NCBI GenBank assembly: GCA_050084515.1
Contig: CM114271.1
Coordinates: forward strand, 4,154,001-4,218,000
Direction: 5' to 3'
Length of the DNA stretch: 64,000 nucleotides
Origin: Blasia pusilla
Taxonomy: Eukaryota
A model generated the notes under the pieces. It did no database searches. It had not been told where the DNA came from and worked only from the letters and a program-made list of their open reading frames with translations. Position numbers and translations under genes: made by a program. Below are positions 12,168-64,000 of this stretch, in pieces; positions within the stretch are counted from its first letter, which is position 1, and each line of letters begins with the position of its first letter.

Positions 12168-14417
12168 CACTAGAAGAAATCATACATTTTATGACTTTCA
12201 TATATGACTAGGTAGAGTCATATTTTGGATGAAATCACTAGTTATGACAAATGACCATTAGAGTCATATAAACCAAGTCATGTACATGTTATGACCGAGG
12301 ATAATCATCTTGGTGTATTATTTCAGTTGTTAATCATTGAGTCATACATATATATGACTAAACATCAACAATGACTAGATATTAATACATAAGCATCTTA
12401 CATTACAAGGAATAGTTTAAAATATGAAAAAATGACACATGTGCAATATGACTAGGTCATTTTTGTTGTATGAGTAAGTCATACAAGACAAATATCACAA
12501 TTCCATTCAATATGTCATGATGACATAAACACCATAAGTGCACAAATATTGCCATGTTTTTATAGGTTCATAGGTTATGAGTTTGATTTTTGACATGTGG
12601 ATCTAATGACTCAGTCATATAAACCACTTTATGTCAGCATCTAATATGTTGAATCAATTGTATGCCGCCACATGTCAATGTTGTGTTTAATTTTATATGA
12701 CACGTGGAAAAAATGACTCGGTTATATATCGTTGTCGTGTCGAGAATCTTTCTTCGAGCAAGGGCGGGCCTTCTAGCTGCGGTAGATGCGGTTGATGCAA
12801 GGTGAACTCTCTAATAAGTTCTCCTTTTTCAATACAAAATTATGATTTACACTCTCCATTCTCTCACGACAGGTATCACAAATGGAAGTGCCGAGGCGAT
12901 CACTTCTTCATAACATCGGACCCAGAAATTCCTAACTATAAAATCCCTATAAACTATTTTACGTTTGTACACGAGGAAGATAGCACAACTAGTGTTAAAC
13001 CCTACTTGACCAGGCCTATTGACATCCATGGATCGCTATATAAGGACATACAAAGTATAATCCCATGTCCTTCCATATGTGACGATAGGAAGAATCACCG
13101 GAGTTGAGATTGCATGACCTGGTTCATGAACGCCCCAAAGTGATAAACTAAATAGCGAGTGAACCAAAGGCCTATCTACAAAGAGTACCTTGACATGTTA
13201 AGGATTGAGAAAAGGAAAGTCACGGCTCGTGCTCCACCCCTATCCATGCTTGATGACATTCTCTACTCTCCTCAAGAATGGGTTTTATGGAGTTATTCTC
13301 CCAAGAGGGGTAATCCACTCTCATTGGGAAAGTAACAAGCCAAAACATCCGCTATTTTAGTATGACTAAACTCCTCTACGGTGACAAATCTCTCATCCCC
13401 CCCACACTTTAGAAACCTCTCGAAGAATAGACCATGATCAAGTTACTCTCCCAAGAGGGGTGATCCACTCTCATTGGAAGAGCAAGCAATCCCAAAGCCA
13501 TACACTCAAGAGAGACACGAGAGACTCAAGATGTGGAATAGAAGGTGATGAACCCTTGAAGGTCCCTCCTCTTTATATACTCACAAGGGATGCACAAGAG
13601 TACGAAATAGAGCTTATCTTATCTTGTGCCACATGGCTTCCTCCCAAGGCTTAGCCAATCACATTTTGACACAAGTAGATTTCCTCTTATCTCTTCCAAA
13701 ATATCCTCTTTTACCCACATGATATTTTCCAAATTACCCCAACTAACCTAGCCACCAACCAATACTACTTTTGCTTTTCATTAAAGCAACTACTTTACTT
13801 TTATAAAATCATCATTTATTTATTACCTCCTTTTCCTAAAGTTGGGCCCGCATAAAAGAGGCACCATAAAGAGGTTTAAACATAAGAATCTCCTTTTTCT
13901 AAGCCAATTTATTTAATACTAATGAAACTCTATCTAACACTTAATGACGAAGGAGTTTACACACTGGTTGATTTTACTATACGACATCGTACTTGGCTAA
14001 AACAGTCATTCTTATGAATATACAAGTGGAGATCTTGCTTCCAAAAAGGTCATTCAAAGATTTCATACAATCATTGGGTGGGTTGATTTGAGTCATAATA
14101 GTTGGCTCACAACTAGTAGGTAGGTTGATATGAGTTGTAATAATTGACTCATAAGTACTAGGTGGGTTAATATGAGTCGTAATTGTCGACTCACAATTAT
14201 TGGGCAGGTTGGGATTAGTGATAGTTGACTAATGTAGTAATTTAATTTAGATATACAATGCGCATTGGATTATTTTGTGATTTTCAATATGAAAATCATT
14301 TGTATAACTAAGATTATTACCATCTCCACTTATCTAATGACTCAAGTCATAGATGTGGCCATTCCATATGACATGGAGAGCCTTTCCTTGAGTCATATCT
14401 TTTTGAAAATATTAGTG
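12168..14417. mobile_element. Non-autonomous CACTA/EnSpm-like element interrupted by a solo LTR
   Basis: Starts CACTAGAAGAAA at 12168. Dense ATGACT/AGTCAT subterminal motifs occur on both sides of the inserted LTR, with ~42-bp tandem units at ~14074-14230 and TAGTG at 14413-14417. The TIR match beyond CACTA is poor and the TSD is not conserved. Confidence 0.5.
12733..13986 (-). mobile_element. Solo LTR (~1.25 kb, family A, probably Ty3/gypsy) with 4-bp TSD TCGT
   Basis: TGTC...GACA termini. Collinear with 28827-30082. TCGT at 12729-12732 and 13987-13990. Confidence 0.9.
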
Positions 14418-15690: not shown

Positions 15691-18600
15691 TGTGGAAAAC
15701 TGCTAAAAAAGCATAATTGGTGGGAAACGGCTCTCACACTCACACATCATCATGACGAACGAAATTTGCAATGAGAGAATGAATGGAGGCTGGTCCCCTT
15801 CTCAATTATATAGGGTATGTACAAACAACCCTAACCCTAACCCTAACCCTAACCTTAACCTTAACCATAATCTCGAGTTAGACTAACTATGATTAACTAA
15901 CCCTAGTTAAGACAATCACGCTTAACTGATTAACCAATATTAAGCTTCCATACTTGGTGTGAGTACCAAATGTAGCAGTTTAGATGTTTCATGAGCTTGA
16001 TTGTAACTCAATCTTTAATATTCCCCCTCAAGCTCATATCGATATCTCTAACGACTAAATCATTTCTAAACATCTCAAACTTATCTCTAAACAATGCCTT
16101 TGTAAAGATGTCAGAAATTTGATGATCTGTACCTATCTACACAAGATCAATTTCTCCTGCAAGCCCTTTCTCTCTGATAAAATGATAGTGCACCTCAACA
16201 TGTTTTGTACGAGCATGTACACACGATTATTAGCAAGCCTGATGCTACTAATATTGTCTGCATATATTACACTAGGTCTTAAGTTACTTACACCATTTGC
16301 AACAAGTAATCGACGAAGCCACACCACCTCACATGCTGTATTGGTTGCTCCTTTGTACTTAGCCTCTGTTGAAGATAAAACAACTGCGGGTTGCTTTTTT
16401 GAAGCCCAACTTATAACTGCGCTTCCCAAAGTAAATGAATAACCAGATGTGGAGTGTCGACCATATACGCTTCTTGGTCAATCATCATCTGTGAATCCCT
16501 GTAATTAAAAACAAGGAGAAGGTTCGAATTGAAACCCGAATTGAACAAAGAATTTCACATACCGCATAATCCTCCTCACAACATCAAGGTGAGGTTTTCG
16601 AGGTGGTTGCATAAATTGGCTCACTAGGCCAACTACATAGCTCAAATCTCGCCTGATTATAGTCAGATAGATCAAACTTCCAACCATGCACATGTTCATA
16701 TTAGAATCTACAAGCAACTCTCCTTCATCCACTCTTAGCTTCAGACTATGGTCCAACGGTGTAGAGATTGGCTTACAAGCCATCATACGATATTTTGAAA
16801 GCATATGAAGAGCATATTTTCGTTATAGTAACCACATGCTCTCTCCAACCTTGATAAGTTCAACATCAAAGAAATACTTGAGTTGTGCGAAGTCCTTCAT
16901 ACCAAATTTTGCTTGTAACTTCAACTTAACTTATTGTACCAATTCTTCATTACTTCCAGTAATCAAGAGGTTGTCAACATACAACACAATAATAACCGTA
17001 TGATCTTTTCCTCTCAAGACATATAATGAGGAGTCAGAATCACATACCCTAAATCCCAACTCTTGTAGGACGTATGTAATCTTGCCATACCAAGCTCTTG
17101 GAGCTTGTTTGAGCCTATATAGAGCTTTCTTCAACCTGCATACTCGAAGTGGAAACTCAGGATGCTCATATCCAAGTAGTTGAGTCATATATACCTCCTC
17201 ATATAGATCTCCATTCAAGAAGGCATTTTTGACGTCCATGTGATGTAATCTCCACTTCTTACTTAGTGCAATTGCAAGCACTGTTCTCGTAGTCGCCATC
17301 TTTGCAATAGGGCTAAAAGTTTCTTCATAATCAATGCCATATTGTTGTGCATAGCCATTAGCCACCAATCTCGCTTTGTATCTGTTAACTATACCATCTT
17401 GATTGCGTTTGATTTTGTAAACCCATTCGCAACCAATAGCTTCCTTACCCGAAGATATATCAACCAGCTCCCATATCTCTTGATGGCTTAATGCAACAAG
17501 CTCTTCCTCCATAGCTTCAACCCATTCAACTTTACCTATAACTTCTTCAAAACAACTCGGCTCATGTTCTTGAAGGGTAGTCATCATATATGCATGATGT
17601 GTCGTAAGGAAACCTTCATTTATGAATCTATGAATAGGATGTGTAACTCTACTTGATCTATGAAATTGTTGTTCAGAGGTAGATGCCTCTGACACCTAAC
17701 TCAAGCTCTTACTTGTGTCAACAAATTGAATACGTATCCTTCCCTTCCATGGACTCACAAATCTAATTGATGAATCTATGACCTCTCTTCCTAATCTTGC
17801 ACTAGTACTTGGGGAATTTGAAGGCAATGTCTGTTGGTTTACAGTCATATTCTCCCTCTCAACAAACAAGTTTAGAGATAGAATAGGTTTAGATGGAGCA
17901 TACCATGACTTTAGCTTAACAAAGACAACATCGCGACTAATAATAAGCTGCCTAGAGGATGGAATGTAGCACTTATATCCCTTAGTTTCATCATCGTAGC
18001 TAATGAAGATACATCTTTCAAACTTGGGGTCTAATTTTTTACGTCTCTCAGAAGGAACACGAGCATAATAAGTACAAACAAATACTTTCAAGAAGGAAAA
18101 ATCAAATTTATTTTCTATGAAGACTTCCAATGGAGTCTTATCATGAACTCTTGTTGTTGGAGTTTGGTTGATTAAGAAAACTACACACGCTACAGCCTCT
18201 ACCCAATACACCTTAGGTATGTTCTTCTCATTCAACATAGCTCGTGCCGCCTCAATAATATGTCGATTCTTTCTCTCAACCACTCCATTTTGTTCTGGAG
18301 TGTAATGGCAAGTCCCTTGACATTAGATGCCATTATAACATAAATAGTCATCAAACTCTGTTGAAAGATTTTCTTCTCCTCCATCACAACGTAATTTCAA
18401 AATGTGATCTTCAGTCTACTTTTCTACTAGAACTCTCAATGTTTGGAACACTGAGAATACCTCTAACTTGGCTTTCAGAAAGTATACCCATATATACTTA
18501 GAGAAGTCATCAATAAATGAAACAAAATACTGACAACCACTAAGGCTATGTTGTGATGCTGTCCACACATTATTGTGGATCAACTTCAATATCTTGGATG

Positions 18601-21909: not shown

Positions 21910-22312
21910 TATTGGATATTCAACATCTATTTCTAAATTCGCATCATTAATCTAAATGATCCCCTTGTATGAGGAGAAGCCTAGATTAATGGTCCCAACT
22001 TAGATATCTAAGGAGTCATAGTTACATGGCGTAGGTGATTTATAGAATAGAGTGTTATTCTAATGACCTAACTCTTCAAATGGGGAAAATTCTAACTAAA
22101 AAAATATAAAAATAGGCCACAAATATAATTTCCAGATTATTCATATAGTCGAGCAATTATAACACTAGTGCATTCTTGTATGTCGAGTCTTCTCCATGTT
22201 TTGGCCTAGGTTCAATAGAGGCTCAATTGTGAGCGCACAAACATATTAGGTCATTTTCTGCTTTAAGGATTTCTACATATTCAATGATTTGTTCATATTC
22301 TCTTTTGTTATA
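21910..22312 (+). mobile_element. Degenerate copy of LTR family B
   Basis: Shares CCTTGTATGAGGAGAAGCCTAGATT..TGGT, AAGGAGTCATAGT and GTATGTCGAGT..TCTCC blocks with 32914-33356. Confidence 0.65.
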
Positions 22313-27468: not shown

Positions 27469-27965
27469 GCTTTCGCTAAAAATCAAATAGTATAGGAAAT
27501 AGTATAGGTCACCAGACATAATGTCTAAACTATAGTGAAGTCCACATGGAAGACTTTGTGTCTAAAGTTCCATAAAATCCACTTTGCACAATTTTAAGTG
27601 AAAATTTAGAAGACAGAGTAAGAATAGGAATCATAACCCCCCTATAGGAATAGGAATCATAATTAAGACAATTGAGATAATTGAAAATTGAATTGGCTTG
27701 TTTTATCGACCAAGATTTTCCAAAAAGTGTTCAAATTCAGCTTTTTGGTAAGTGGCGTCCTGCCTCTTCTTCTGCTTCATCTCCGCCTCCATGCATTTCT
27801 TCTCGGCCTTCTCATCCTCCGCGAGCAATTTCGCTTCCCGCTTCTCCTCTTGCTTCGCGAGCTTCTCTAGAGCTAGCTTTGCCAACATTTCCTGCTTCCT
27901 CATCTTGGTTTCCTCTCGCGCCTCGATTTCCTCGTGCCGCACACCTACGGCCGTGCGTCGCGTAC

Positions 27966-30082
27966 TAGGATTCCTATCAAGTTTTAGCTCAGCCATTTCT
28001 ACTCTCAACTCTCTCAAACCTTTCGCCAATTCATCAATAGAATCTTCAAGCTTTGCTGACATGGGCTTAGGCAATAGATTTGAAATTGATACCTCCGACT
28101 TGAATAGTGCGATTCTACCTCTACTTCAACTTTGCTCTGTGAGAATAGCAACAACTTCTTCCACTTTCTTCCAATTAGTCTTGACACCTCCTTTTTCGGT
28201 TATGAAAAGCTTGTCCTCCAAATTCTCATCATGCCGCCTCAAGGAATAACTCGGTTTTTCTCAAGTCTAGAGTTGCTCTTTCGGAAGAAGAAAGCTGAAA
28301 AAACCGCTTATCAAACTCACGCAACAATTCATTTGGAGTCATTCCCTTCCCTAGACGTTGCTCTATCCATTCTAGAAAACTCCTCTTAATCACCCGATCC
28401 ACATCATCATCAAGAATTCTCCTTTCAGCAATTGCTCATACTCCTCCCACGAGGTTGGATTTTCTACTCTCAACTTCTTTACTTGACTACGGATCTCTAG
28501 TATTATAGCTAACTCAAAACTTGACACCATATAACCTTCGGGTACACGGTTTACCTCAATCTCACAGACGTATTCTCGAACATGGTTATGTCCCTCCCCT
28601 CAAATCTCCCCAACTTCTTTACAATCGCTTGGAGAGCCCTTGTTGATCTTTGCTCTCCTATGTGAACTCTTCCTTGTTGGCTCAATAATGTTGGCAAAGT
28701 TCAGAAAAGATCCTCAGCTCTCTCAATTCCCATTGATGAAATACTCCCAAAAGTAGTCATCTTGATAAGACTCCAACTTGCAAATACAATCTATCGCCTC
28801 AAAGATCTCTCAATGGAAGCATCATTTGTCATATCGAGAGCCTTTCTTCGTCTCGCGCAGGCCTTCTAGCTGCGGCACACGTGGTCGATGCAAGGTAAAC
28901 TCTTTGAGAAGTTCTCCTTTTTCAATGCAAAACTAATATGAATACTCTCTATTCTCTCACGACAAGTATCACAAATGGAAGTGCCGAGGTGATCACTTCT
29001 TCGTAACATCAGACCCCAAAATTCCTAACTATAAAATCCCTATAAACTATTTTACGTTTGTACACGAAGAAGATAGCACAACTAGTGTTAAAACCTACTT
29101 CACCAGGCCTATTGATATCCATGGATTGCTATATAAGGACATACAAAGTACAATCCCATATCCTTCCATATGTGACGATAGGAAGAATCACCGGAGTTGG
29201 AGATTGAATGACCTGGTTCATGAACGCTTCCCCAAAATGATAAACTAAATAGCGAGTGAACCAATGTCTATCTACAAAGAGTACCTTGACATGGTATGGA
29301 TTGAGGAAAGGAAATTCGGGCACAACTCGTGCTCCACCCCTATCCATGCTTGACACACATTCTCTACTCCTCAAGAATGGATTTTGGCGGAATTATTCTC
29401 CCAAGAGGGGTAATCCACTCTCATTGGGAAAGAAACAAGCCAAAACATTCACTATTTTAGTATGACAAGCCTCTCATCTCCACACACACACCACACTCTA
29501 GAAACTTCTCGAAGGATAGACCATGGTCAAGTTACTCTCCCAAGAGGGATGATCCACTCTCATTGGAAGAGCAAACAATCCCAAAGCCATACACTCAAGA
29601 GTGACACGAAAGACTCAAGATGTGGAATAGAAGGTGATGAACCCTTGAAGGTCTCTCTTCTTTATATACTCACAAGAGATCCACAAGAGTACGAAATAGA
29701 GCTAATCTTATCTCGTGCCATATGGCTTCCTCTCAAGGCTTAACCAATCACATTTTGACACAAGTAGATTTCCTCTTATCTCTTCCAAAATATCATTTTT
29801 TATTCACTTGATATTTTCCAAATTATCCCAACTAACCTAGCCACCAACCAAGCCTACTTTTGCTTTTCATTAAAGCACGAACTTGAGTACTTTACTTTTA
29901 TAAAGTCATCTTTTATTTATTATCTCTTTTCCTAAAGTTGGGCCCGCATAAAAGAGGCACCATAAAGAGGTTTAAACATGAGAATTTCCTTTTCCTAAGC
30001 TAATTTACTTAATACTAATAAAACTCTATCTAACATTTAACGAGGAAATAATTTACACACTGACTGATTTTACTATACGACA
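27966..30082 (-). mobile_element. Truncated family-A LTR retrotransposon: 5' LTR (30082..28827), PBS-like site and decayed gag-like coiled-coil region
   Basis: LTR collinear with 12733-13986. It is followed by AA-TGATGCTTCCATTGAGAG (TGGTGCTTCC in the 34685 copy). Downstream frame reads ...KLEDSIDELAKGLRELRVEMAELK. Confidence 0.85.
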
Positions 30083-30863
30083 ACGGTTGTAGATTGGAAT
30101 CGATAAGGAGGAAGGATCCGAGAGCCTTGTCCCCTTAGGAACCCCGTATATGTCCCATGTGATCCATGATGAGTCCCAACGCCTCCCCCGATTTTGAAGC
30201 TTTTGGAAACGAAAATCCATCGAAATCAATATTTGGTCCTTCCCCGAGAACAACCACATCGCAACTCCAAACGCTTCAAATCCAAGGCACCAACACTCAC
30301 TCGTCATCATCCGACAGCTCCTCCAGAATCACCGTTGGCCTCGTCCTTCCAAATTTTGGGATAACTGGTAGTGAGGATGGCGTCACAACCAGTGGCTCCA
30401 ATGGAGGTTCCTCTACTCGTCCAGGCAACTTGTAAATGCCAATCATCCTCTCATAATCTAACTTTTCCTCTCGGCAAAGTGCAAACAAGGCGTTCCTCAC
30501 CTCAAGGTAGAGAATGTTTTGCCCACTCTGCCAAGCAGCTCTAACACTTGCCCTAGAAAGACCGACCAAATCTAGAACCAAATCACATGGCCTCAAACAT
30601 AGCTCCATCAGGGTTTGCAGGAGTGAGGGGGATTTTTCCCTTCCTCCAAGCATAGGCACCCCTTCCTCGATCACGATTCGAGGGGGTGAATTTGACAGGT
30701 TGTTCAGAGTGTATCCACGTAAACCTAGATCAACATGATCCTTTACCTCAAAAACCTCAAACCTGTGCTCCGGTCTGACAAAACAATATACGTACGAATA
30801 TTCAATCTGCAAAAAACACTCGTTAAAATAAGCTTAGAATCGATGGGGGGAAGAGTTCCAAGA

Positions 30864-31178
30864 GAAACCCGACGGAATTTGACGGGTTGCAAATGAAATA
30901 TATCACCGAGGCAATTTTCTTTCAAGGGTCTCTCAGCATTCAGACGCTTTGCCCAGCAACCGTGGATGCCCAAAGTGCAACCCGTCAGAATCCGACAGGT
31001 TGCAAGGGTTGCGGCAAGGCCTATTAGGGTGGGTGCTGCGACCCGTCGGAGTCCGACGGATAGCAGGACCCACTCACTCTCTGGCATGTGTTTCGCAAAC
31101 CGTTGGAGTCCGACGCGTTGCAGGAAACACTCCCTTTCTGGGTTGGATTTTGCATCCTGTTGGAGTCCGACGGTTTGC
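30864..31178. repeat. Array 1 of 27-bp palindrome GCAACCCGTCGGAnTCCGACGGGTTGC (5 copies, intronic)
   Basis: Copies start at 30864, 30977, 31038, 31095 and 31152. Confidence 0.9.
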
Positions 31179-32913
31179 AAGAAAGAACAAAAAAATTTGC
31201 GGGTTTAAGTTATCGAACTTGCCAAAATTTGGTTTCAAACCGACCTTAGTGGGTAGTCATAGTTCACTACCCAAGATTGCACGGTTTGCCACTTCAATGA
31301 TCGCTTCACGCAGTGCAAGTTGAAGAGCTCATCCTTGCTTCCTCCGATGAGAACCAAGAAACACCTGGTGTCACTACGATACGCGTTGGTAAAGGAAAAC
31401 ATCATCGCTATCTGGTCATATGTGAATGGAGTGTTCCATTCCAAGACTATGTCGCGTGGATTTTCTGCCCACACTTTGAGCCCCGACGGTAGATCAGCGA
31501 TGAGGAGGTCAACTACAACCTCCTCACGAACCCCATTGACGGTCCATGGGGCATGGCCACTTTTCAGAAGCTTACGTCCCAACAGTGTCAGCTTCTCCAA
31601 GGCAGGTGTAGACTTGTGCTGAGAACTTATCCAATTCTTCCAGCAACGATGTCTGATGTAGCAGAATGGTGAGTTTTGCTGCTAAATCCCTGTGCTTCCC
31701 CAATGATGAAAGAGTCTAGACAAAATTCTTGTCCCCCCCCCCCCTCCCCCTTGAAGGAATTGGGTGTCTCCCTCTTTTGCTTTTCGTGTGTGGGGTGCCT
31801 GCTTGTTGGGGTCTCCGTGACATCGGAATCCACTGGATTTGATTTTGGGGCCTCCCGTATCCATCCTTCTCGTCTTGATGATCTTGCTTCGGATGGTTTG
31901 GGGGCCTTTACCTTGGCTCTCAACCCCGCAGTCGACTTGTCTTTTGCCGTGATTGTCTTTGACAAAATCTCCGCCGCCTCAATCGCTTGTGCCTTGCCAT
32001 CTCCTTCGAAGTACTCCTCGGTCTTGAAGATATTTGGGATGTTCTCCTCGCCAGCAGCTAGCACATGATACAAGTCTTGCATTTTGGGTCAATGAGCTCA
32101 TCAGGGTCATTGAAGTCCAACCAGATTGGACAGTTGAGCAATTCCCAAGGGCTCATCTCGAGGGCCATGTGCATGTCATACATGGAGAATCCTTCGCCAT
32201 TCGGAGTATCTGCCCATAGCTTGAGCGCAGCCGGAAACTTCCTCCATATTCTTGCATTCACACAAGAGTTCAAGAACTTGAACACCATCCTCTACGCAAC
32301 TCAATGGCGGGATGAATCGGCAGCTTGATCTTGAAGCTCCTTCTTCTTTTTGGTGAAGTCTCGTGTCTTCGGGTCGCCAATCTCCTCGTCGACATCCCCC
32401 TGTGGAAAAATCTGGTTCTTGAATATCATCTTGAACCCAGGGTTCTTTACCCGCTTATCCCGGATGTCATTTAACCACAACTCGAACTCCTCCGCTGATT
32501 CGAGGCTAGCCTCCTCGGGAATGAGCAGAATTCTCTGCATGTCATCTTGAAGGCATTCAATTATGGACTTTCCCAGCAAGCGCAAGGCATCCTAGAAGGA
32601 TGACTCTCGCAGCCACTGGGAGATGATTGGGTCCAAGGCCCTCAAGGGATGGTGTGCCAATTTTTTCTTTTCCTCTATTCCTTCTAGACTGATCTTCATC
32701 AATCTCATCCGCCTAAATTCGGAAATCCCTGAAAGGGCCAACCGGTGAACTCGATCCAATAACACCTTCTCTACATTGCATGCTTGGGGATCCTCATCCC
32801 TCTTTCGCTGCCTCTTGATTATGGCCTTCAACTCTTTGTAGAAGTCTGGCCCGAGCTCGGGGTTTAGGACGGCGATGTACCGCTGCATCTTGCTCGCAAG
32901 GTAATGGGTGGAC

Positions 32914-33356
32914 TGTTGGATTCTCAACATCCACTTCTCTAAGCACCATTAATCTGATCGGCTCCCTTGTATGAAAAGAAGCCTAGATTGATGGTTCCGA
33001 CTTAGACGTCGAAGGAGTCATAGTAATATGACGTAGGTGGTTTGAGGAGTAGCGTTACTAGGTTTATCTTACCCTATATTGCATCAGGGTGCCCCGCACC
33101 CTGATGCAATATAGGGTTAGATAAACGTTTCTTTGTTTCTATGAATAGAAACAAAGAAAAATAGGTAAAAACCCTAGTTTTCCCAAGTAGTCAAATAGTC
33201 GGGAGCCGCAACGGTAGCGCATTCTCGTATGTCGAGTTATCTCCCAGTTCAGGTTCCATCGAAGCTCTTCTGTGAGCGCACGGACGGACTAGGCCACTTT
33301 GTATCTCTAAGTTTTGTAAAGATTTCAGTGACTTCGTCACTTTCCGTTTTCTCACA
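32914..33356 (+). mobile_element. Solo LTR (family B, 443 bp) with 5-bp TSD TGGAC, inserted in the MTase-like gene
   Basis: TGTTG...CACA termini. TGGAC at 32909-32913 and 33357-33361. Homologous (inverted) to 47275-47700. Confidence 0.93.
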
Positions 33357-33709
33357 TGGACGCCGACACCTCAACTTAAATGAACTTGGCTCTCTCAGAA
33401 GCCGAAACATTCTCTCTCCACTCGAGCTCAAGTGTCGCGCTTCTTTTCGCCACCTGGATGTTTTACCAGCATAGTATTGTAACAACTACATCTTGGGAAA
33501 TGAATGTGTTGGCCCATGTCTTCTTTTTTATTTGGGCTCCTTTTGCGAGCATCTCATCCACCAATTCCTCTCCTAGGAATCCCTTGTATTACGATGGGTG
33601 AGTTCTAAGCACCTTCCTCACTAGGTCGTATTTTTGGATCCAGTGATGGGTAACATTCCTTCGGACACAATATTGCAAACATCAACAAAGAGTAAGAAAA
33701 TTTACAACT

Positions 33710-34071
33710 ACAACCCGTCGTTTTTCGACGGGTTGGAAGCAGACAAACAAAACAAAAGCTATTTGCAACCCGTCAAAGTCTGACGGGTTTTTCCAAAAGT
33801 TTTGAACAATCCGACGGAAATCCACGGTTTGTATTCGGGTCCATCACGGCTGGGTTGCAACCCGTCGGACTCCGTCGGGTTGCACCTCGACTCCGATAAA
33901 TTCAAAAATTTAACCCGTCAGAAACCGACGGATTGCAAAGCCATCCAAATTGAGTTGAGGATTCAGACGCTAGTTCTTGCACTCGCAACCCGTCGAGGTC
34001 CGACGGGTTGGAAATTATAGAGTGCCAACATGCGAGTTTGATTGGCTCTGCAACCCGTCGGTCTTCAACGA
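33710..34071. repeat. Array 2 of the 27-bp palindrome (7 copies; last one cut by an LTR)
   Basis: Copies start at 33710, 33765, 33806, 33857, 33910, 33985 and 34050. Confidence 0.9.
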
Positions 34072-34840
34072 TGTCGTATAGTAAAATCAACCTGTGTGTA
34101 AACTCCTTCCTCGTTAAGTGTTAGATAGAGTTTTATTAGTATTAAGTAAATTAGCTAAGGAAAAGGAAATTCCCATGTTTAAACCTCTTTATGGTGCCTT
34201 TCCTCAATCCATACCATGTCAAGGTACTCTTTGTAGATAGGCACTGGTTCACTCGCTATTTAGTTTATCACTTTGGGGAAGCGTCCATGAACCAGGTCAT
34301 TCAATCTCCAACTCCGGTGATTCTTCCTATCGTCACATATGGAAGGACATGGGATTGTACTTTGTATGTTTGTATATAGGGATCCATGGACGTCAATAGG
34401 CCTGCTCAAGTAGGGTTTAACACTAGTTGTGTTATCTTCCTCGTGTACAAGCATAAAGTAGTTTATAGGGATTTTATAGTTACTAATTTTGGGGTCCGAT
34501 GTTATGAAGAAGTGATCGCCTCGGCACTTCCATTTGTGATACTTGTCGTGAGAGAATGGAGAGTATACATGATAATTTTGTATTGAAAAAGGAGAACTTC
34601 TTAGAGAGTTCACCTTGCATCGACCACGTCTTCCGCGGTTAGAAGGCTTGCCCTTACTCGACGAAAGGCTCTTGATACGACAAATGGTGCTTCCACTGAG
34701 AGATCTTTGAGGCGGTAGATTGTGTTTGCAAGTTAGAGTCTTATCAAGATGACTACTTTTGGGAGTACTCCATCAATGGTAACTGAGGGAGTTGAGGATC
34801 TTCTCTGAACTTTGACAACATTGTTGAGCCAACAAGGAGG
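34072..34840 (+). mobile_element. Family-A LTR (34072..34682, with ~640-bp internal deletion near 34199) plus PBS-like site and short internal sequence
   Basis: Reverse complement of the 28827-30082 LTR ends (TGTCGTATAGTAAAATC...GATACGACA). TGGTGCTTCCACTGAGAG at 34685. Confidence 0.9.
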
Positions 34841-34852
34841 AGTGAGAAGGCA

Positions 34853-35100
34853 GTGTCCTGCCTCTTCTTCAGCTTTATCTCCGCATCCATGCGTTTCTTC
34901 TCGGCCTTCTCCGTATCTACGAGCAATTTTGCTTCTCGCTTCTCCTCTTGCTTCGCGAGCTTCTCCAATGCAAGTTTCGCCAACATTTCCTGCTTCCTCA
35001 TTTCGGCTTCACGCTCGCGTTGCTCGATTTCTCTCGCCGTACATTTGCAGGCGTCCGTCGCGTAACAGAAGGTGGAGTTCAGCTGGATTTAGGCGAGAAG
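34853..35100 (-). pseudogene. Coiled-coil coding fragment, probably an upstream exon of the MTase-like gene; second copy at ~27703-27965
   Basis: MRKQEMLAKLALEKLAKQEEKREAKLL..EKAEKK.M.AE.K.KKRQD occurs at both loci on the minus strand. Confidence 0.55.
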
Positions 35101-35506: not shown

Positions 35507-35775
35507 GCAACTTGTCAGAGTTTGATAGGTTTCTGGGAGAGATCCCGCTCAGTTCCTCCAACACGTCAGACCCCAACGGGTTGCAAGGTACCCATCCAGC
35601 TTGGGTCCCGTGCAACCCGTCTGACTCCGATGGCTTGCACAAGGACCATTCATCCTGATTCATGCAACCCGTCGGACTCCGACGAGTTGCAAGAAGATCA
35701 CGTGAAACATGCACGATAACCCACGCACTGAACCTGTGCGAGAATTTTGCAATCCGTCGGACTTTGACGGGTTAT
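35507..35775. repeat. Array 3 of the 27-bp palindrome (5 copies; a further degenerate copy near 35849)
   Basis: Copies start at 35507, 35558, 35612, 35664 and 35749. Confidence 0.9.
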
Positions 35776-46700: not shown

Positions 46701-48240
46701 TGTCAAAAAGTTGTTGGCCAAAAAGGACAGGTGTTACCGGTTAGGGTGTTTGAAACCCAAAAGGGCACTATGCTATAATAGTTATTATTATAGCATGGTG
46801 CCAAGCTAGAGCAAGAGTTGTTGAAGAAACTACACACATATAAACAAAACAAAGAGAGAGGTAGCTTGCATAAACAAGAAGAGTGAGAGGATGCACAAAG
46901 AGAATAAGAGACGCTCATTCTTCTCCTTGTATATAGAGGTTGGGAGAAGCAATGCTTGCCATAGAATCCACACAAAAGGTTTATAACCTTACCCTATATG
47001 AGTACACAAGTTACATGAACCAACTCATATCACTTTTTAAGCTATCACGCTAAATATCAATATACTAACCTATATGAAGCATCTTAAGCTTGGGCTTGTA
47101 TTAATTTTCCCCCTCAAGATCATCCCTACATATCCTTTACATATAAATGGAATTTTAAATAATCAAAATTATCTCTAGATAGTATCTAGGTGAAGATATA
47201 ATCCAATTGTTCATTTGTATTAACATATGTAAGCTTTACTTTATCTACAAAGATTTTCTCTCTAATGAAATAATTGTGAGAAAACAAAAAGTGACGAAAT
47301 CACTGAAATCTTTACAAAACTTGGAGATAACTCGACATAGTGGCATAGTCCGTCCGTGTGCTCACTGAAGAGCTTCGATGGAACCTAAACATGGAGATAA
47401 CTTGACATACGAGAATTCGCTACTGCTGCGGCTCTTAACTTTTTAACTACTCAGGAAACTAGGGGTTTTTACCTATTTTTTGTATTTCTATTAATAGAGT
47501 TTTTTCATCATGGTGCCCCACGCACCGTGATGCAATATAGGGTTCGATAATCCTAGTAACGCTACTCCATAAACCATCTACATCATATTACTATGACTCC
47601 TCCGATGTCTAAGTTGGCACCATCAATCTAGGCTTCTCCTCATACAAGGGGGCCGATCAGATTAATTGTGCTTAGAGAAGTGGATGTTGAGAATCCAACA
47701 ATAATAAAGCATCTTAATGTGCTTTGCCCTAACTTGAAACATTCTTTTTTTTTCCAAATGAATATTGTTGATATTCTCTCATAAATGAATATTAGATTTG
47801 AATATTCTAAGCCTATATATATGAGTAGATTTTTCAACCAAATTGATTTTTGTAATGCCATGGTTACTCTTTGGTATTAATCTTTAAATGAAGATAAGGC
47901 ACAAATCAACTATTTCTTCAAAAACTAGCCTACTACCACACTTCCAAATTTGAATCTGGAAGTTGATCTTCTGTCATGGGTGTTCCAACCCAATATTCAT
48001 AAGAATACATGTATACTTACAAGGCTTTAATTATGAGTAGTGAAGTCTAAACAGATTTTTGAATTTCACATACCTTATGACCCGCCTAATTACATATATC
48101 GAGATGTAGTTTATGCACTGGTTGCATAAATTGACTTACCAAACCAATTGCATAATTAAGATCTGGCTTATGATAGTCTAGTAGATCAAACTCCCAACCA
48201 TAGCATAAGAAGTGTTGGGATTGCTTATCTCATTGTCTTC
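46701..48240 (-). mobile_element. 3' part of a Ty1/copia element (RT C-terminus, RNase H, PPT, probable 3' LTR ~47105..46701)
   Basis: MVGSLIY....PDLNYAIGLVSQFMQP; KHIK...FIREK...YVNTNEQLDYIFT; PPT CTTGAGGGGGAA at ~47117..47106. Confidence 0.85.
47275..47700 (-). mobile_element. Solo LTR (family B) with 5-bp TSD ATAAT, nested in the copia RNase H
   Basis: TGTGAG...CCAACA termini. ATAAT at 47270-47274 and 47701-47705. Inverted homolog of 32914-33356. Confidence 0.93.
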
Positions 48241-61434: not shown

Positions 61435-61614
61435 GTATTTGTCAAGTCCCGTGGGCCTTTTGGATCCTTGTGGACAATAATCATCGCATTCATTCTCTCC
61501 TGTGGACAATAAATCAGTTCATTCATTGTCTCTCTCTGTGTAGCATGGGCTGCCTATTGTCGGAGTAGGAGGAGCCACTGCCCTATGTGCTGAACGTGAG
61601 AGAGAGAGAGGTGG

Positions 61615-64000
61615 ATGGGTATCGAGAAGATGGGCCGATTCAAAAGCGTGAGTGGGTTGATATGTTTGGTGGTCGTGCTTCGCCATCTTTATTGCTGCTT
61701 AGGCCAGATCCCCAGCACACTGGACGGACCATTCACCCCCACGACGGTCTCATTCGACCCCTCTCTGCGTCAGGGTAGCGAGGATCTCTCCATCTCTGAC
61801 CCTCGAGTGGTGAAGAAAGTGTCAGGGATTTACCCGGAGCAGATATCTATTGCACTCTCGACACCGGATGCAATGTGGATTTCTTGGGTCACAGGTGAAT
61901 TCGCTCTCCTGGAATCCTCCAATATCCTTGCACTGTCGCGTAGCTTACGTTGGACACTGGACCGGAACCGGAAGGTCCTCCATCATTCCTCCATCCTCCA
62001 TTCCAATTATCGTCGTGCTTCGAGGCGATGGACTGATTGCTGAGATTGTGAGATGTCGAATGCAACCTTTCACTTCCAGTTTAATTGCTTCGAATGGAAG
62101 AGAAGGGCTGCGAGCTCAATTGCTTATCAGAATGGACAAGAAAGTTTAAACATTACTCCTATCTGAACCGAGTAGTGTACTCTTCCCGAGCGAGGGATTC
62201 CACCAGTGATTAAATTATTGTTGATACGGAATGCAGGAGATGCACAATTGGGACCCAAGGTTACTCCCTTGGATCCCTCGACAGTGGGCAGCGACGTCGT
62301 GTATGGTATTCAGAGTGGTGTGTATAAGTCAACAGCAATCGGCACTTCGTCCGTCTACAGTCAAATCTATCCCTTTCAGGGTCTACTAAACTACACCTCA
62401 GGGATCATCCATCATGTTCGCTTGACTGGTACGCACATGTCCACAGAGCGTAGAACTCTCAGATCATTCTCCTGTGACACTTTAATCGTCCAGAGCTTTT
62501 CATGGACACCGTGACTTAAGGGTTTGTCTGCTCATGGGTTTGCTCTGTGGTTTTGGAGATCTTTGTCCAGTCTATACGTACACTTTCTCCTTTGGCTATG
62601 TTGAAGTAGGTGGGGCCTTGGAGCGTCTAGTGTGTTCACTGTTCCACCGTTTGTGGCACAAGTTGATTTCGACATATGGGTCTACAGAAGTCAAGGATCT
62701 AATGGACTTTATCTTCCTACTTCTCAAAATGTGGTATTTGATCATGTTGCAAGTCGCAAAGACACTCAAGTCCCCCAAGAGATAGTAATGGGTGACGAGA
62801 ATCAGTTCAGATGATAAATCAAGTGCTTGTGAACAGTTTAGAGCTTTCTGGTTTAGAATGCCCATCGTGCTTAAGTGAGATCGGTGCAGGACTATCACAT
62901 CGAACTGTGGCGAATCGGTCATATTTCCTAGTTTGCTTAGCCTCTCATTCGTCTCAGAGTTGTAGCTGTGGTATGATATTTGATGCTGACGATTGTTTTC
63001 TGACTTCCATTTGTTTGTTCAGGTCTTCTTCCAAGCACAGTATATTACTTTGTGTGCGGAGATAGTTCATTAGGAATCATGAGCGAAGAGGGCTCCTTCC
63101 AAACCCTTCCCCTGCCCAGTCCAGTAAGCTACCCTGCCAGAATTGCTGTGGTGGGAGACCTGGGCTTGACTTACAATTCTAGTTCAACTCTGGACCACGT
63201 AATCCAGAACGATCCATCTATGCTTTTGATGATCGGAGACCTGAGCTACGCCAATCAGTACCTCACCGATGGCACTGGAGCAGCGTCGTGCTATAGCTGC
63301 TCTTTTCCCGACAGTCCTACACGAGAAACCTTCCAGCCTCACTGGGACAATTGGCAGAGGTACGTTTCCATTCAAATGTTGGATTGTTTGAGTTGGAAAA
63401 TTCTCGTTTGCTGTGAACACCTTCTGCCATAACAGTTTTACCAGATTGTCACTCTAGATGGACTTTCAATACCGTGGTTGGTTTGTTTTAGTCGTAAGAG
63501 AACTGAGAAACTCTTGTTTGATATCAATATTAATACTGCTTGCCATAGCCTTTCGACCAGAGTGCCACTCTGGATAGGCTGTCATTTGCTATCGATATTA
63601 TTATTGCTTGCCACAGCCTTCTGACCAGAGTGCCACGCTGGATAGTCTGTCAATTTAATATGATCGGTAGAGGAGGGCATTTCAGGTAAATGCGCGTGAT
63701 TAGAAGTTGGACCGGCCTGTAGTATTTCAAGTCGAATTGTCAGACTTTCATTCAGGGGAATGGTGAGATGAGTTTGTTGACTTGCCAAGATGTTGGGTTG
63801 GCAGGTTCATGGATCCACTGATATCCAAGATACCGATGATGGTGATAGAAGGAAATCATGAAATTGAGCCTCAAGCTAATGGGGTGACTTTTGAAGCTTA
63901 CAAGACACGATTCGCCGTTCCATTGGAAGAGAGTGGATCTGGAACCAGTCTTTATTATTCCTTTGATGCCGGCGGCATCCACTTCATCATGCTTGGAGGC
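61615..64000 (+). CDS. Purple acid phosphatase, PAP23/PAP15 (phytase-type) clade; exons 61615-61894, 62237-62428, 63023-63359, 63805->64000
   Basis: IPSTLDGPF...PEQISIALS...ISWVTG, LLNYTSGIIHHVRL, metal-ligand motifs GDLG, GDLSYAN and GNHE, and FYYSFDAGGIHFIMLG. All introns are GT..AG with consistent phase. The start may be the ATG at 61615 or 61630. Confidence 0.96.
63521..63656. repeat. Two-copy ~68-bp tandem duplication in PAP intron 3
   Basis: TGCTTGCCA.AGCCTT..GACCAGAGTGCCAC.CTGGATAG.CTGTCA occurs twice in tandem. Confidence 0.8.

Follow-up and report, generated by a model that had tools for sequence, protein, structure and literature searches.

A broken copy of a repeated Blasia pusilla gene with a candidate degenerate beta-class methyltransferase-derived domain

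The window analysed here is a stretch of 64,000 nucleotides of Blasia pusilla DNA (GenBank assembly GCA_050084515.1, contig CM114271.1, positions 4,154,001 to 4,218,000), and the locus described within it is a broken copy, not an intact gene, from a repeated family that is decaying amid high-copy repeats. With somewhat more confidence than doubt, we read it as a dead copy belonging to a repeated plant gene family and carrying a degenerate beta-class (PF01555-type) methyltransferase-derived domain. The family gene would comprise about 720 codons, its N-terminal ~430 residues being helical, of low complexity and without likeness to any recognisable family, and its C-terminal domain of ~290 residues, which would descend from a circularly permuted DNA amino-methyltransferase, being split by one GT..AG intron. 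The present copy itself is probably an inactive relic.

Two minus-strand open reading frames, each with a methyltransferase-like motif block, lie exactly where the original prediction had located them, and the helical and low-complexity reading frames that it had described upstream of the domain are likewise present (Table 1). The open frame 31681..31241 contains ...EEVVVDLLIADLPSG..., and the frame 30806..30300 contains ...GGREKSPSLLQTLMELCLRPCDLVLDLVGLSRASVRAAWQSGQNILYLEV..., in the order motif VIII-like EYSYVYCFVR, variable region and motifs X-I-II, ending in an acidic tail rich in proline. The GT..AG intron proposed to split the domain has its AG, the 3' end of 31240..30807, preceded by a T-rich tract, and its removal joins the two frames, the junction reading ...YDYPLRS followed by IEYSYVY...; left unspliced, exon 1 meets a TGA after one further codon. 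The methyltransferase alignment of the spliced domain by hhalign continues across the putative exon junction. Each intron junction is bridged by one contig in the DNA runs, that at exon 2 by a contig differing at 15 of 107 letters. Contigs of a presumed RNA run match only the high-copy element 32914..33356, which has no bearing on expression or splicing. The intron also contains four hairpin-repeat units at a spacing of ~57 nt, and the intron together with the plant repeats within it excludes bacterial contamination, as had been argued.

Table 1. Features of the gene region and its flanks (window coordinates)
Feature	Position	Strand	Remarks
N-terminal coding segment	32595..32886	-	starts at first ATG (MQRYIAVLNPELGPDFYKEL...); charged, helical
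Continuation of N-terminal frame	32061..32591	-	codon starts mod 3 = 2; three-frame translation
Low-complexity middle segment	31630..32088	-	other frame (mod 3 = 0); G-run near 31750
Short helical segment	31575..31715	-	frame mod 3 = 2
Exon 1 of the methyltransferase-like domain	31241..31600	-	frame open from 31681; motif IV-like block, then helix and strand blocks
Motif IV-like DLLIADLPSG	31481..31510	-	in exon 1
Putative spliceosomal intron	30807..31240	-	GT..AG, 434 nt, phase 0
Exon 2 of the domain	30300..30806	-	TGA stop 30299..30297
Motif X-I-II-like block EKSPSLLQ..DLVLDLVGLSRAS..AAWQSGQNILYLEV	30498..30638	-	in exon 2
High-copy repeat R	28666..30085		3' flank of the gene; outside the gene
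Nested high-copy element	32914..33356		just upstream of the first ATG; near-perfect palindrome ~33060..33140
Inverted partial copy of repeat R	34062..34843		5' flank of the gene region

The resemblance of the predicted domain to PF01555 appears to exceed chance, though it is weak. A 79-sequence PF01555 profile, in which the conservation of motif IV is inflated because a peptide pattern for this motif served to collect the sequences, aligned with the spliced 289-aa domain in a single collinear alignment of 253 columns by hhalign (score 26.3, P 0.0079), with high posterior confidence at both motif IV and motifs X-I-II; the hhalign probabilities, calculated from sequence profiles alone, amount to only 2-8%. 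A score of 26.3 was reached by 0 of 212 shuffles of the spliced domain (mean 14.8, sd 2.6, max 22.4); reversing the sequence lowered the score to 15.7. Taken alone, exon 1 found its best match at the motif IV block (score 20.3, P 0.027; equalled by 2 of 85 shuffles) and exon 2 at motifs X-I-II (score 26.1, P 0.0046; equalled by 0 of 85). With another profile, made from 30 Bacillota PF01555 genes chosen by the Pfam model, the register was unchanged (26.0, P 0.0069). When hhalign was used to compare this 30-sequence profile with all 313 stop-to-stop reading frames of at least 60 aa in the window, the exon-2 frame ranked 1st (25.9, the second-best scoring 17.9; mean 11.2, sd 2.25) and the exon-1 frame, with its alignment at the motif IV columns, ranked 9th. 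A YhdJ-family profile aligned with the X-I-II block of exon 2 (P 0.024). The signal seems specific, since an MT-A70 (PF05063, METTL3/14/4-type) profile from 22 bacterial loci gave only noise by hhalign (score 13.2, P 0.45). Of 40 columns conserved to at least 85%, the plant sequence matches 15 exactly, while its overall identity is 19%, and the motif order IV ... VIII ... X-I-II, with the catalytic motif first and the SAM-binding motifs C-terminal, is collinear with PF01555. Counting against the resemblance, the HMMER profiles built here scored about -2 bits on the domain, and in a window-wide hmmsearch one profile placed the exon-2 frame only 6th of 313, while the other did not place it among the top 8.

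Database searches were for the most part negative. Pfam, with exons 1 and 2 scanned separately, returned no family at E <= 10, hence nothing at the PF01555 gathering threshold of 26.7 bits; NCBIfam returned only an arabinopyranosidase at 13.7 bits, which is noise. There was no relevant match to either exon by phmmer among PDB sequences, no longer protein in word-index searches with exon 1 and exon 2 as queries, and no relative in metagenome scans with both exons. A bacterial LVIVD-repeat protein, the sole match of exon 2 among 1.84 billion representatives (phmmer), was driven by repeats and judged spurious. None of the protein collections searched yielded a relative from which a family alignment, conservation signal or ancestral motif state could be derived. 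Only 2 of 38,880 PHROGs families matched, both named 'DNA methyltransferase' (E 0.056 and 0.33; residues 57-111), and the better one, phrog_6952, which aligns with the X-I-II block of exon 2, maps in all 5 bacterial genomes compared to the C-terminal portion of beta-class methylase genes. In the ESM Atlas, PF01555 was found in 19 of the 30 clusters nearest to exon 2 (score 0.91), an agreement of a type that also occurs for one third of shuffled proteins, and exon 1 found nothing (best 0.80).

Structure prediction adds little: the AF2 single-sequence models (pLDDT 35.2 for exon 2 and 44.1 for exon 1) are too poor for fold assignment. When the exon halves were folded as two chains, ipSAE was 0.37 (best control 0.00), with at least 61% of contacts in agreement between runs and a partner pLDDT of at least 54, a weak prediction of packing, given that halves of one domain may pass this test through likeness to solved structures. 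Of 78 solved complexes 51 pass the ipSAE mark, as do 2 of 108 mismatched pairs; passing at values of at most 0.60 are 5 of the 78 solved complexes and all 4 passing mismatches (of 180). The beta-class identity put forward in the original prediction is thus upheld in part: collinear order, two profiles, first rank in the window, PHROGs and the ESM Atlas speak for it, but the signal is weak, and the profile comparison that had been proposed beforehand gave a profile-profile match to PF01555 but none in Pfam at E <= 10.

The PF01555 (N6_N4_Mtase) family consists of beta-class, circularly permuted enzymes and includes E. coli YhdJ and CcrM-type enzymes; its catalytic tetrad is (D/N/S)-P-P-(Y/F/W/H). 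The plant domain is like these enzymes in the order and spacing of its blocks, in that a motif IV-like strand and loop come first and are followed, ~160 residues on, by a K-P helix (motif X), a VLD strand (motif I), a helix and a Glu-ending strand (motif II). However, its tetrad is D-L-P-S (31495..31484), in place of the D-P-P-Y found in 79 of 79 profile sequences, a set collected by that pattern. In addition, the SAM loop of motif I (30570..30544) reads D-L-V-G-L-S-R-A-S instead of D-P-F-x-G-S-G-T-T, so that the glycine-rich loop is gone and all of its P, F, G, T and T columns, which are at least 95% conserved in the profile, are altered. The motif II Glu (E228) and the motif X helix Lys (K184; both in spliced-domain numbering), in columns conserved to 95% and 94%, are retained, and about 8 of 9 key catalytic and SAM residues are altered. 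The divergence of both motifs had been pointed out before and is confirmed against the profile columns. The plant gene further differs from PF01555 enzymes in its score below the Pfam threshold, its intron and its unrelated N-terminal ~430 residues, and is repeated and decaying, whereas those enzymes belong to restriction-modification, phage or cell-cycle systems. Given that a loss of key residues on this scale is unlikely to result from ~5-15% nucleotide divergence in one copy, the family progenitor was probably already a pseudo-enzyme, in which the methyltransferase fold would have persisted as a module for binding nucleic acids or proteins. Comparable cases would be METTL14 and the dead methyltransferase domain carried by DIRS1 elements.

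Upstream of the domain, three-frame translation reveals three in-frame stops, and the frame changes three times. The N-terminal segment 32595..32886, which had no Pfam match at E <= 10 and a best PDB match of only E 0.72, is directly followed by an in-frame TAG (32594..32592). Its continuation, for which nothing was found in Pfam or among PDB sequences, is broken by a TGA (32303..32301) and a TAG (32294..32292), and its frame ends at an A-run (32085..32082). The low-complexity segment that follows matched no Pfam family. The short helical segment would join the exon-1 frame if 2 nt were added at 31611/31612, and one contig of another copy carries an A inserted behind 31611 and a T behind 31612. 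Ahead of motif IV the exon-1 frame has no Met, leaving the domain alone without a start codon. The plant gene is therefore not intact.

Nor is it a domesticated single-copy enzyme gene, a reading implicit in the original prediction, but one of several diverged copies among high-copy repeats. DNA runs of the same organism contain contigs 85-97% alike to the gene, differing for example at 28 of 190, 49 of 350 and 6 of 218 letters. Among the 42 of 653 variant rows listed, 8 of 8 differences in the two domain exons alter the amino acid, as do 14 of 18 over the whole gene, one of them to a stop; as the listed differences are mostly non-synonymous, there is no sign of constraint. The differences between copies are mainly C>T and G>A. 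Because a diverged copy retains the intron, the family would have spread at the DNA level, or via unspliced or antisense RNA.

The surroundings of the gene are rich in repeats. Repeat R has a further copy at 12732..13989 (88.6% alike), and loose read ends are abundant at its edge (30082/30085); the inverted copy at 34062..34843 is about 90-91% alike to R and has no equivalent of 29312..29954. The nested element 32914..33356 has copies at 47275..47700 and 21912..22257. We considered whether the flanking inverted repeats are the terminal repeats of a gene-carrying transposon and rejected this, because the third R copy ends at the same base and is then followed by unrelated sequence, and because many reads have loose ends there. 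Neighbouring reading frames included no transposase, and no reverse transcriptase close to the gene; in the six reading frames of the gene itself Pfam found nothing, including no reverse transcriptase or recombinase family. Also present in the window are an exon for a purple acid phosphatase (its best PDB match being 6git, E 2e-40) and the reverse transcriptase of a copia element (PF07727, E 8.6e-57), which show that the window comes from a plant.

It is unlikely, though a serious contender, that the motif blocks are coincidental and that the locus is non-coding or derives from a decayed repeat protein of unrelated fold. Such a chance resemblance would explain why Pfam, NCBIfam and PDB sequences hold no match for the domain and why no homologues appear, why the HMMER scores are negative and without top rank in the window, and why AF2 confidence is very low; moreover, the region was selected for its motifs, which brings in a look-elsewhere effect. 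However, the exon-2 frame is a clear outlier among the 313 frames of the window and the exon-1 frame stands 9th with the correct columns and order, and coincidence would also have to account for the agreement of two profiles, the noise level of MT-A70, the restriction of PHROGs matches to DNA methyltransferases and the pointer of the ESM Atlas to PF01555. We give rather less credence to a progenitor that was an active, or recently active, N6-adenine/N4-cytosine DNA methyltransferase of a mobile element or endogenised virus, with the loss of motifs reflecting the decay of one copy. The present copy is clearly decayed, several key changes lie one transition off the canonical codon (e.g. CTA Leu for CCA Pro in motif IV, AGG Arg for GGG Gly in motif I), and C>T and G>A prevail between copies. 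Nevertheless, the altered key residues go far beyond the 5-15% nucleotide divergence between copies, the motif IV aromatic and one motif I glycine require at least 2 changes, and the listed variant rows, which omit the motif codons, include no intact or canonical copy.

Two further readings are far less probable. A functional single-copy host gene of bacterial origin that has been eukaryotised is very improbable: the GT..AG intron with its good acceptor, the surrounding plant repeats and the two long open exons are what such a gene would show, but the upstream stops and frame changes and the missing start codon of the domain contradict it for the present copy, and both the several diverged copies in the DNA runs and the mostly non-synonymous differences argue against it. 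Hardly any weight falls on the last reading, a PCIF1-like, inactive methyltransferase domain of a DIRS1-type retrotransposon, which was prompted by the inverted repeats that flank the locus. DIRS1 elements are indeed described as carrying an inactive methyltransferase domain, but one of the M.EcoKI/M.TaqI-type group, which is not circularly permuted (PMC4738411), whereas motif IV precedes motif I here. In addition, the DIRS1 domain lies in a polyprotein with RT/RNase H beside a tyrosine recombinase, and Pfam recognised no reverse transcriptase or recombinase family in the six reading frames of the gene; the flanking inverted repeats represent a high-copy repeat that is independent of the gene, and a review of land-plant transposable elements places DIRS, among plants, in green algae only (PMC9033089).

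Our preferred reading, a dead copy with a degenerate beta-class domain, can be set beside genes of this bacterial enzyme class in other eukaryotes. DN4MT1 of Marchantia is reported to group with prokaryotic N4C methyltransferases and to be an essential N4-cytosine methylase of sperm (bioRxiv 10.1101/2021.02.12.428880), and rotifer N4CMT is described as a eukaryotic N4-cytosine methyltransferase of bacterial origin (PMC8885841, PMC10406627). Compared by description, DN4MT1a/b and N4CMT share this class with the plant gene; in contrast to the copy described here, which is broken and has lost key motifs, they are active enzymes with biological roles. The DIRS1 methyltransferase domain and METTL14/Kar4 resemble the plant domain in another respect, as methyltransferase folds with disrupted catalytic or cofactor residues that are non-catalytic or repeat-borne (PMC4738411). 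However, the former belongs to the M.EcoKI/M.TaqI-type group and METTL14 to MT-A70, and the plant domain matches neither type.

According to the same review, land plants have few amino-methyltransferases (PMC4738411). With its catalytic motifs lost, the dead copy is of value as a query for intact relatives in the host genome, and not as a new enzyme. It is conceivable, if rather doubtful, that the locus belongs to a repeated, probably mobile, land-plant element family with a gene of its own that contains a spliceosomal intron and derives from a bacterial-type (beta-class) amino-methyltransferase, and that copies more complete or younger than this one might code for a functional N6-adenine/N4-cytosine DNA methyltransferase or for a decoy. 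If a decoy were encoded, the methyltransferase fold would be used by the element for self-marking or for interference with host silencing; the family might also exemplify a repeat carrying a methyltransferase fold. An element-borne methyltransferase would give land plants an equivalent of the DNMTs carried by retrotransposons and of the dead methylase of DIRS1, and a repeated plant family from the same bacterial class as DN4MT1 would represent another independent acquisition.

The gene considered here is the minus-strand locus running from a first ATG at 32886 to a TGA at 30299..30297, and its two downstream exons, when spliced, encode a domain of 289 residues. The open frames, the motif blocks and the putative GT..AG intron lie in the sequence where the original prediction had placed them, and because the intron borders and the phase 0 join are present as well, that observation is confirmed as written. 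Without splicing, a TGA is reached one codon past exon 1.

Features of the gene, of related contigs from the same organism and of the surrounding DNA (window positions)
Feature	Position	Strand	Detail
N-terminal frame	32886 (first ATG) to 32061	minus	
In-frame stops in N-terminal frame	32594..32592, 32303..32301, 32294..32292	minus	TAG, TGA, TAG
Three frame changes	32085..32082; near 31750; near 31611	minus	A-run (32085..32082); around G-run (31750)
Exon-1 open frame	31681 to 31241	minus	contains EEVVVDLLIADLPSG
Motif IV-like block	31510..31481	minus	within exon-1 frame
Putative intron	31240..30807	minus	434 nt; GT start, AG end after T-rich tract; phase 0 join
Exon-2 frame	30806 to 30300	minus	stop TGA 30299..30297
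GGREKSPSLLQTLMELCLRPCDLVLDLVGLSRASVRAAWQSGQNILYLEV block	30638..30498	minus	within exon-2 frame
Example contig	30415..30604		28 other letters in 190
Example contig	31252..31601		49 other letters in 350
Example contig	31118..31335		6 other letters in 218
Repeat R (high-copy)	28666..30085; 12732..13989; 34062..34843		last copy inverted, without about 640 nt
High-copy element, about 440 nt	32914..33356; 47275..47700; 21912..22257		near-perfect palindrome around 33060-33140
Palindromic-unit arrays	30983-31172, 33863-34005, 35618-35769		
K/E-rich ORFs	27703-28125, 34753-35088	minus	
Ty1/copia integrase and reverse transcriptase	16931-18322	minus	RVT_2 PF07727, E 8.6e-57; one in-frame stop between
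Purple acid phosphatase exons	61600-63432	plus	ORF 63004-63432 vs PDB 6git, E 2e-40
GC-rich stretch	686-1416	both	overlapping long ORFs

Profile-profile comparison weakly connects this domain to PF01555 (N6_N4_Mtase), the circularly permuted beta-class DNA amino-methyltransferases. Exons 1 and 2 were joined in a script and aligned by hhalign to profile 1, made of 79 PF01555-type genes (a YhdJ-family alignment gave 80 loci, one of which was excluded for length). This yielded a single collinear alignment of 253 columns with a score of 26.3 (P 0.0079), a value reached by none of 212 shuffles (mean 14.8, sd 2.6, max 22.4); the reversed domain scored 15.7. Posterior confidence was high over motif IV (VDLLIADLPSGL vs VDLIFADPPYNI) and over motifs X-I-II. 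When each exon was aligned by itself, exon 1 matched best at precisely the motif IV block (20.3, P 0.027; reached by 2 of 85 shuffles), and exon 2 at motifs X-I-II (26.1, P 0.0046; 0 of 85). The proposed splice is itself supported, since the alignment continues over the exon junction, from an IVW-type strand into an E-Y-x-hydrophobic-(K/R) block. Profile 1 had been collected using a motif IV peptide pattern, and therefore profile 2 was built from 30 Bacillota genes selected by the Pfam model itself; it reproduced the register of the alignment, with a score of 26.0 (P 0.0069). With all 313 stop-to-stop ORFs of at least 60 residues in the window as a natural-sequence null, the exon-2 ORF ranked first (25.9 vs 17.9 for the next; mean 11.2, sd 2.25), and the exon-1 ORF, directly upstream of it, ranked ninth, aligned on the motif IV columns. 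These comparisons suggest a weak, reproducible signal to PF01555, and we consider homology to PF01555-type methyltransferases likely, though well short of assured.

Direct searches gave no such match. In Pfam, neither exon and none of four upstream ORFs matched a family at E <= 10, and nothing relevant came from phmmer against PDB sequences or from NCBIfam, nor any match for either exon from word-index searches for longer proteins; two metagenome scans were likewise empty. An exhaustive phmmer search with exon 2, covering 1.84 billion representatives, found one protein, a bacterial LVIVD-repeat protein; the match runs through its repeats and was judged spurious. Annotated relatives of the family are absent from the Pfam, PDB, NCBIfam, protein and metagenome collections searched. 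Our own HMMER profiles scored the domain at about -2 bits, and a window-wide hmmsearch ranked the exon-2 ORF sixth among the 313 when one of the profiles was used and below eighth place when the other was, so that HMMER-level evidence for homology is absent. The methyltransferase match on which the original prediction depended was therefore found in part: by hhalign with both PF01555 profiles, but not by Pfam or HMMER, and AF2 without an alignment reached only pLDDT 35 (exon 2) and 44 (exon 1), values too low to verify the fold.

In PHROGs, two of 38,880 families match exon 2, both named 'DNA methyltransferase' (residues 57-111; E 0.056 and 0.33), and in five of five bacterial genomes phrog_6952 falls on beta-class methylase genes, over their C-terminal part. 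PF01555 made up 19 of the 30 nearest ESM Atlas clusters of exon 2 (0.91), but by the tool's own warning one in three shuffled proteins shows agreement of this kind; exon 1 had no match there (0.80). Folded as two chains, the exon halves gave an ipSAE of 0.37 vs 0.00 for the best control, with contact agreement of at least 61% between runs and partner pLDDT of at least 54. Of 78 solved complexes 51 reach the mark used, as do 2 of 108 mismatched pairs; passes at 0.60 or under comprise only 5 of the 78 solved complexes but all 4 passing mismatches (of 180), and halves of a single domain may pass via likeness to solved structures. The models weakly favor halves that would pack together.

Forty columns of the profile have a conservation of at least 85%, and the plant sequence carries the identical residue at 15 of them. 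Motif IV retains D, L, A, D and the second P, and motif X its Lys and two Leu; also retained are the two Asp around strand 1, an Ala in helix A and the motif II Glu. Motif IV has lost its first Pro, its Tyr and its Asn, and motif I its Pro, Phe, Gly and both Thr, losses that bear out the divergent catalytic and SAM-binding motifs described earlier. Given the established roles of these motifs, a PF01555-class enzyme with such losses would be predicted neither to hold SAM nor to position the target amino group. Judged by sequence, the domain probably descends from and works like the PF01555 beta-class enzymes. It departs from that family in catalytic motif, cofactor motif and Pfam score, and for these reasons is not filed as a member. 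MT-A70 identity is ruled out by a control profile (22 loci), which scored 13.2 (P 0.45). The dead methylase domain of DIRS1 was also rejected, since one review assigns it to the M.EcoKI/M.TaqI-type group rather than the circularly permuted one (PMC4738411), and a TE review gives green algae as the only plants with known DIRS elements (PMC9033089). Marchantia DN4MT1 (bioRxiv 10.1101/2021.02.12.428880) and rotifer N4CMT (PMC8885841, PMC10406627) belong to the same bacterial class and are active enzymes in eukaryotes; their likeness to the domain is one of class description. A limited literature search found no published account of a plant repeat that carries a domain of this kind.

The window is plant DNA, as its purple acid phosphatase exons and Ty1/copia reverse transcriptase show, and other repeats surround the gene. 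Inverted repeats around it might be taken for its own termini; instead, they are two insertions of repeat R, because R ends at an identical base in all three copies, where many reads also have loose ends. R has very high depth in DNA runs and may be an LTR or other element terminus. Pfam found no transposase or reverse transcriptase adjoining the gene among its own and neighboring ORFs. Within the stretch compared, contigs of a run guessed to be RNA fall only on the element at 32914-33356. The K/E-rich ORFs flanking the locus, about 83% alike in DNA and without a Pfam family, are in direct orientation, yet the adjoining R copies are inverted. The window holds 10 occurrences of a short palindromic unit with a CGTCGGAnTCCGACG core, vs 0.03 expected; four units, about 57 nt apart, lie within the putative intron, and the rest form two arrays upstream of the gene. 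DNA-run contigs connect the intron array with that at 33700-33860, which marks the unit as a dispersed hairpin-repeat family. Farther off, the Pro/Ser/His/Arg-rich stretch at the window's start probably represents either low-complexity sequence that does not code or the 5' end of a gene.

This copy of the gene is a pseudogene, with in-frame stops, frame changes and an exon-1 frame that has no Met ahead of motif IV. A contig from another copy carries two additional bases at 31611/31612; with these, the frame would again run on into exon 1. Many parts of the gene have counterparts, 85-97% alike, among contigs from DNA runs of the same organism. One contig spans the exon-1/intron junction and one the intron/exon-2 junction (15 other letters in 107), so the intron is older than at least part of the family's spread. 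Among the copy differences, C>T and G>A predominate. The 42 of 653 variant rows listed include 18 substitutions in the gene's frames (4 synonymous, 13 residue-changing, 1 stop), and each of the 8 that fall in the domain exons alters a residue; these listed substitutions show no sign of constraint. The evidence weakly supports a real methyltransferase-like relic, carried by one dead member of a repeated family in a plant, and its main interest is that it could serve as a query in the search for fuller copies.
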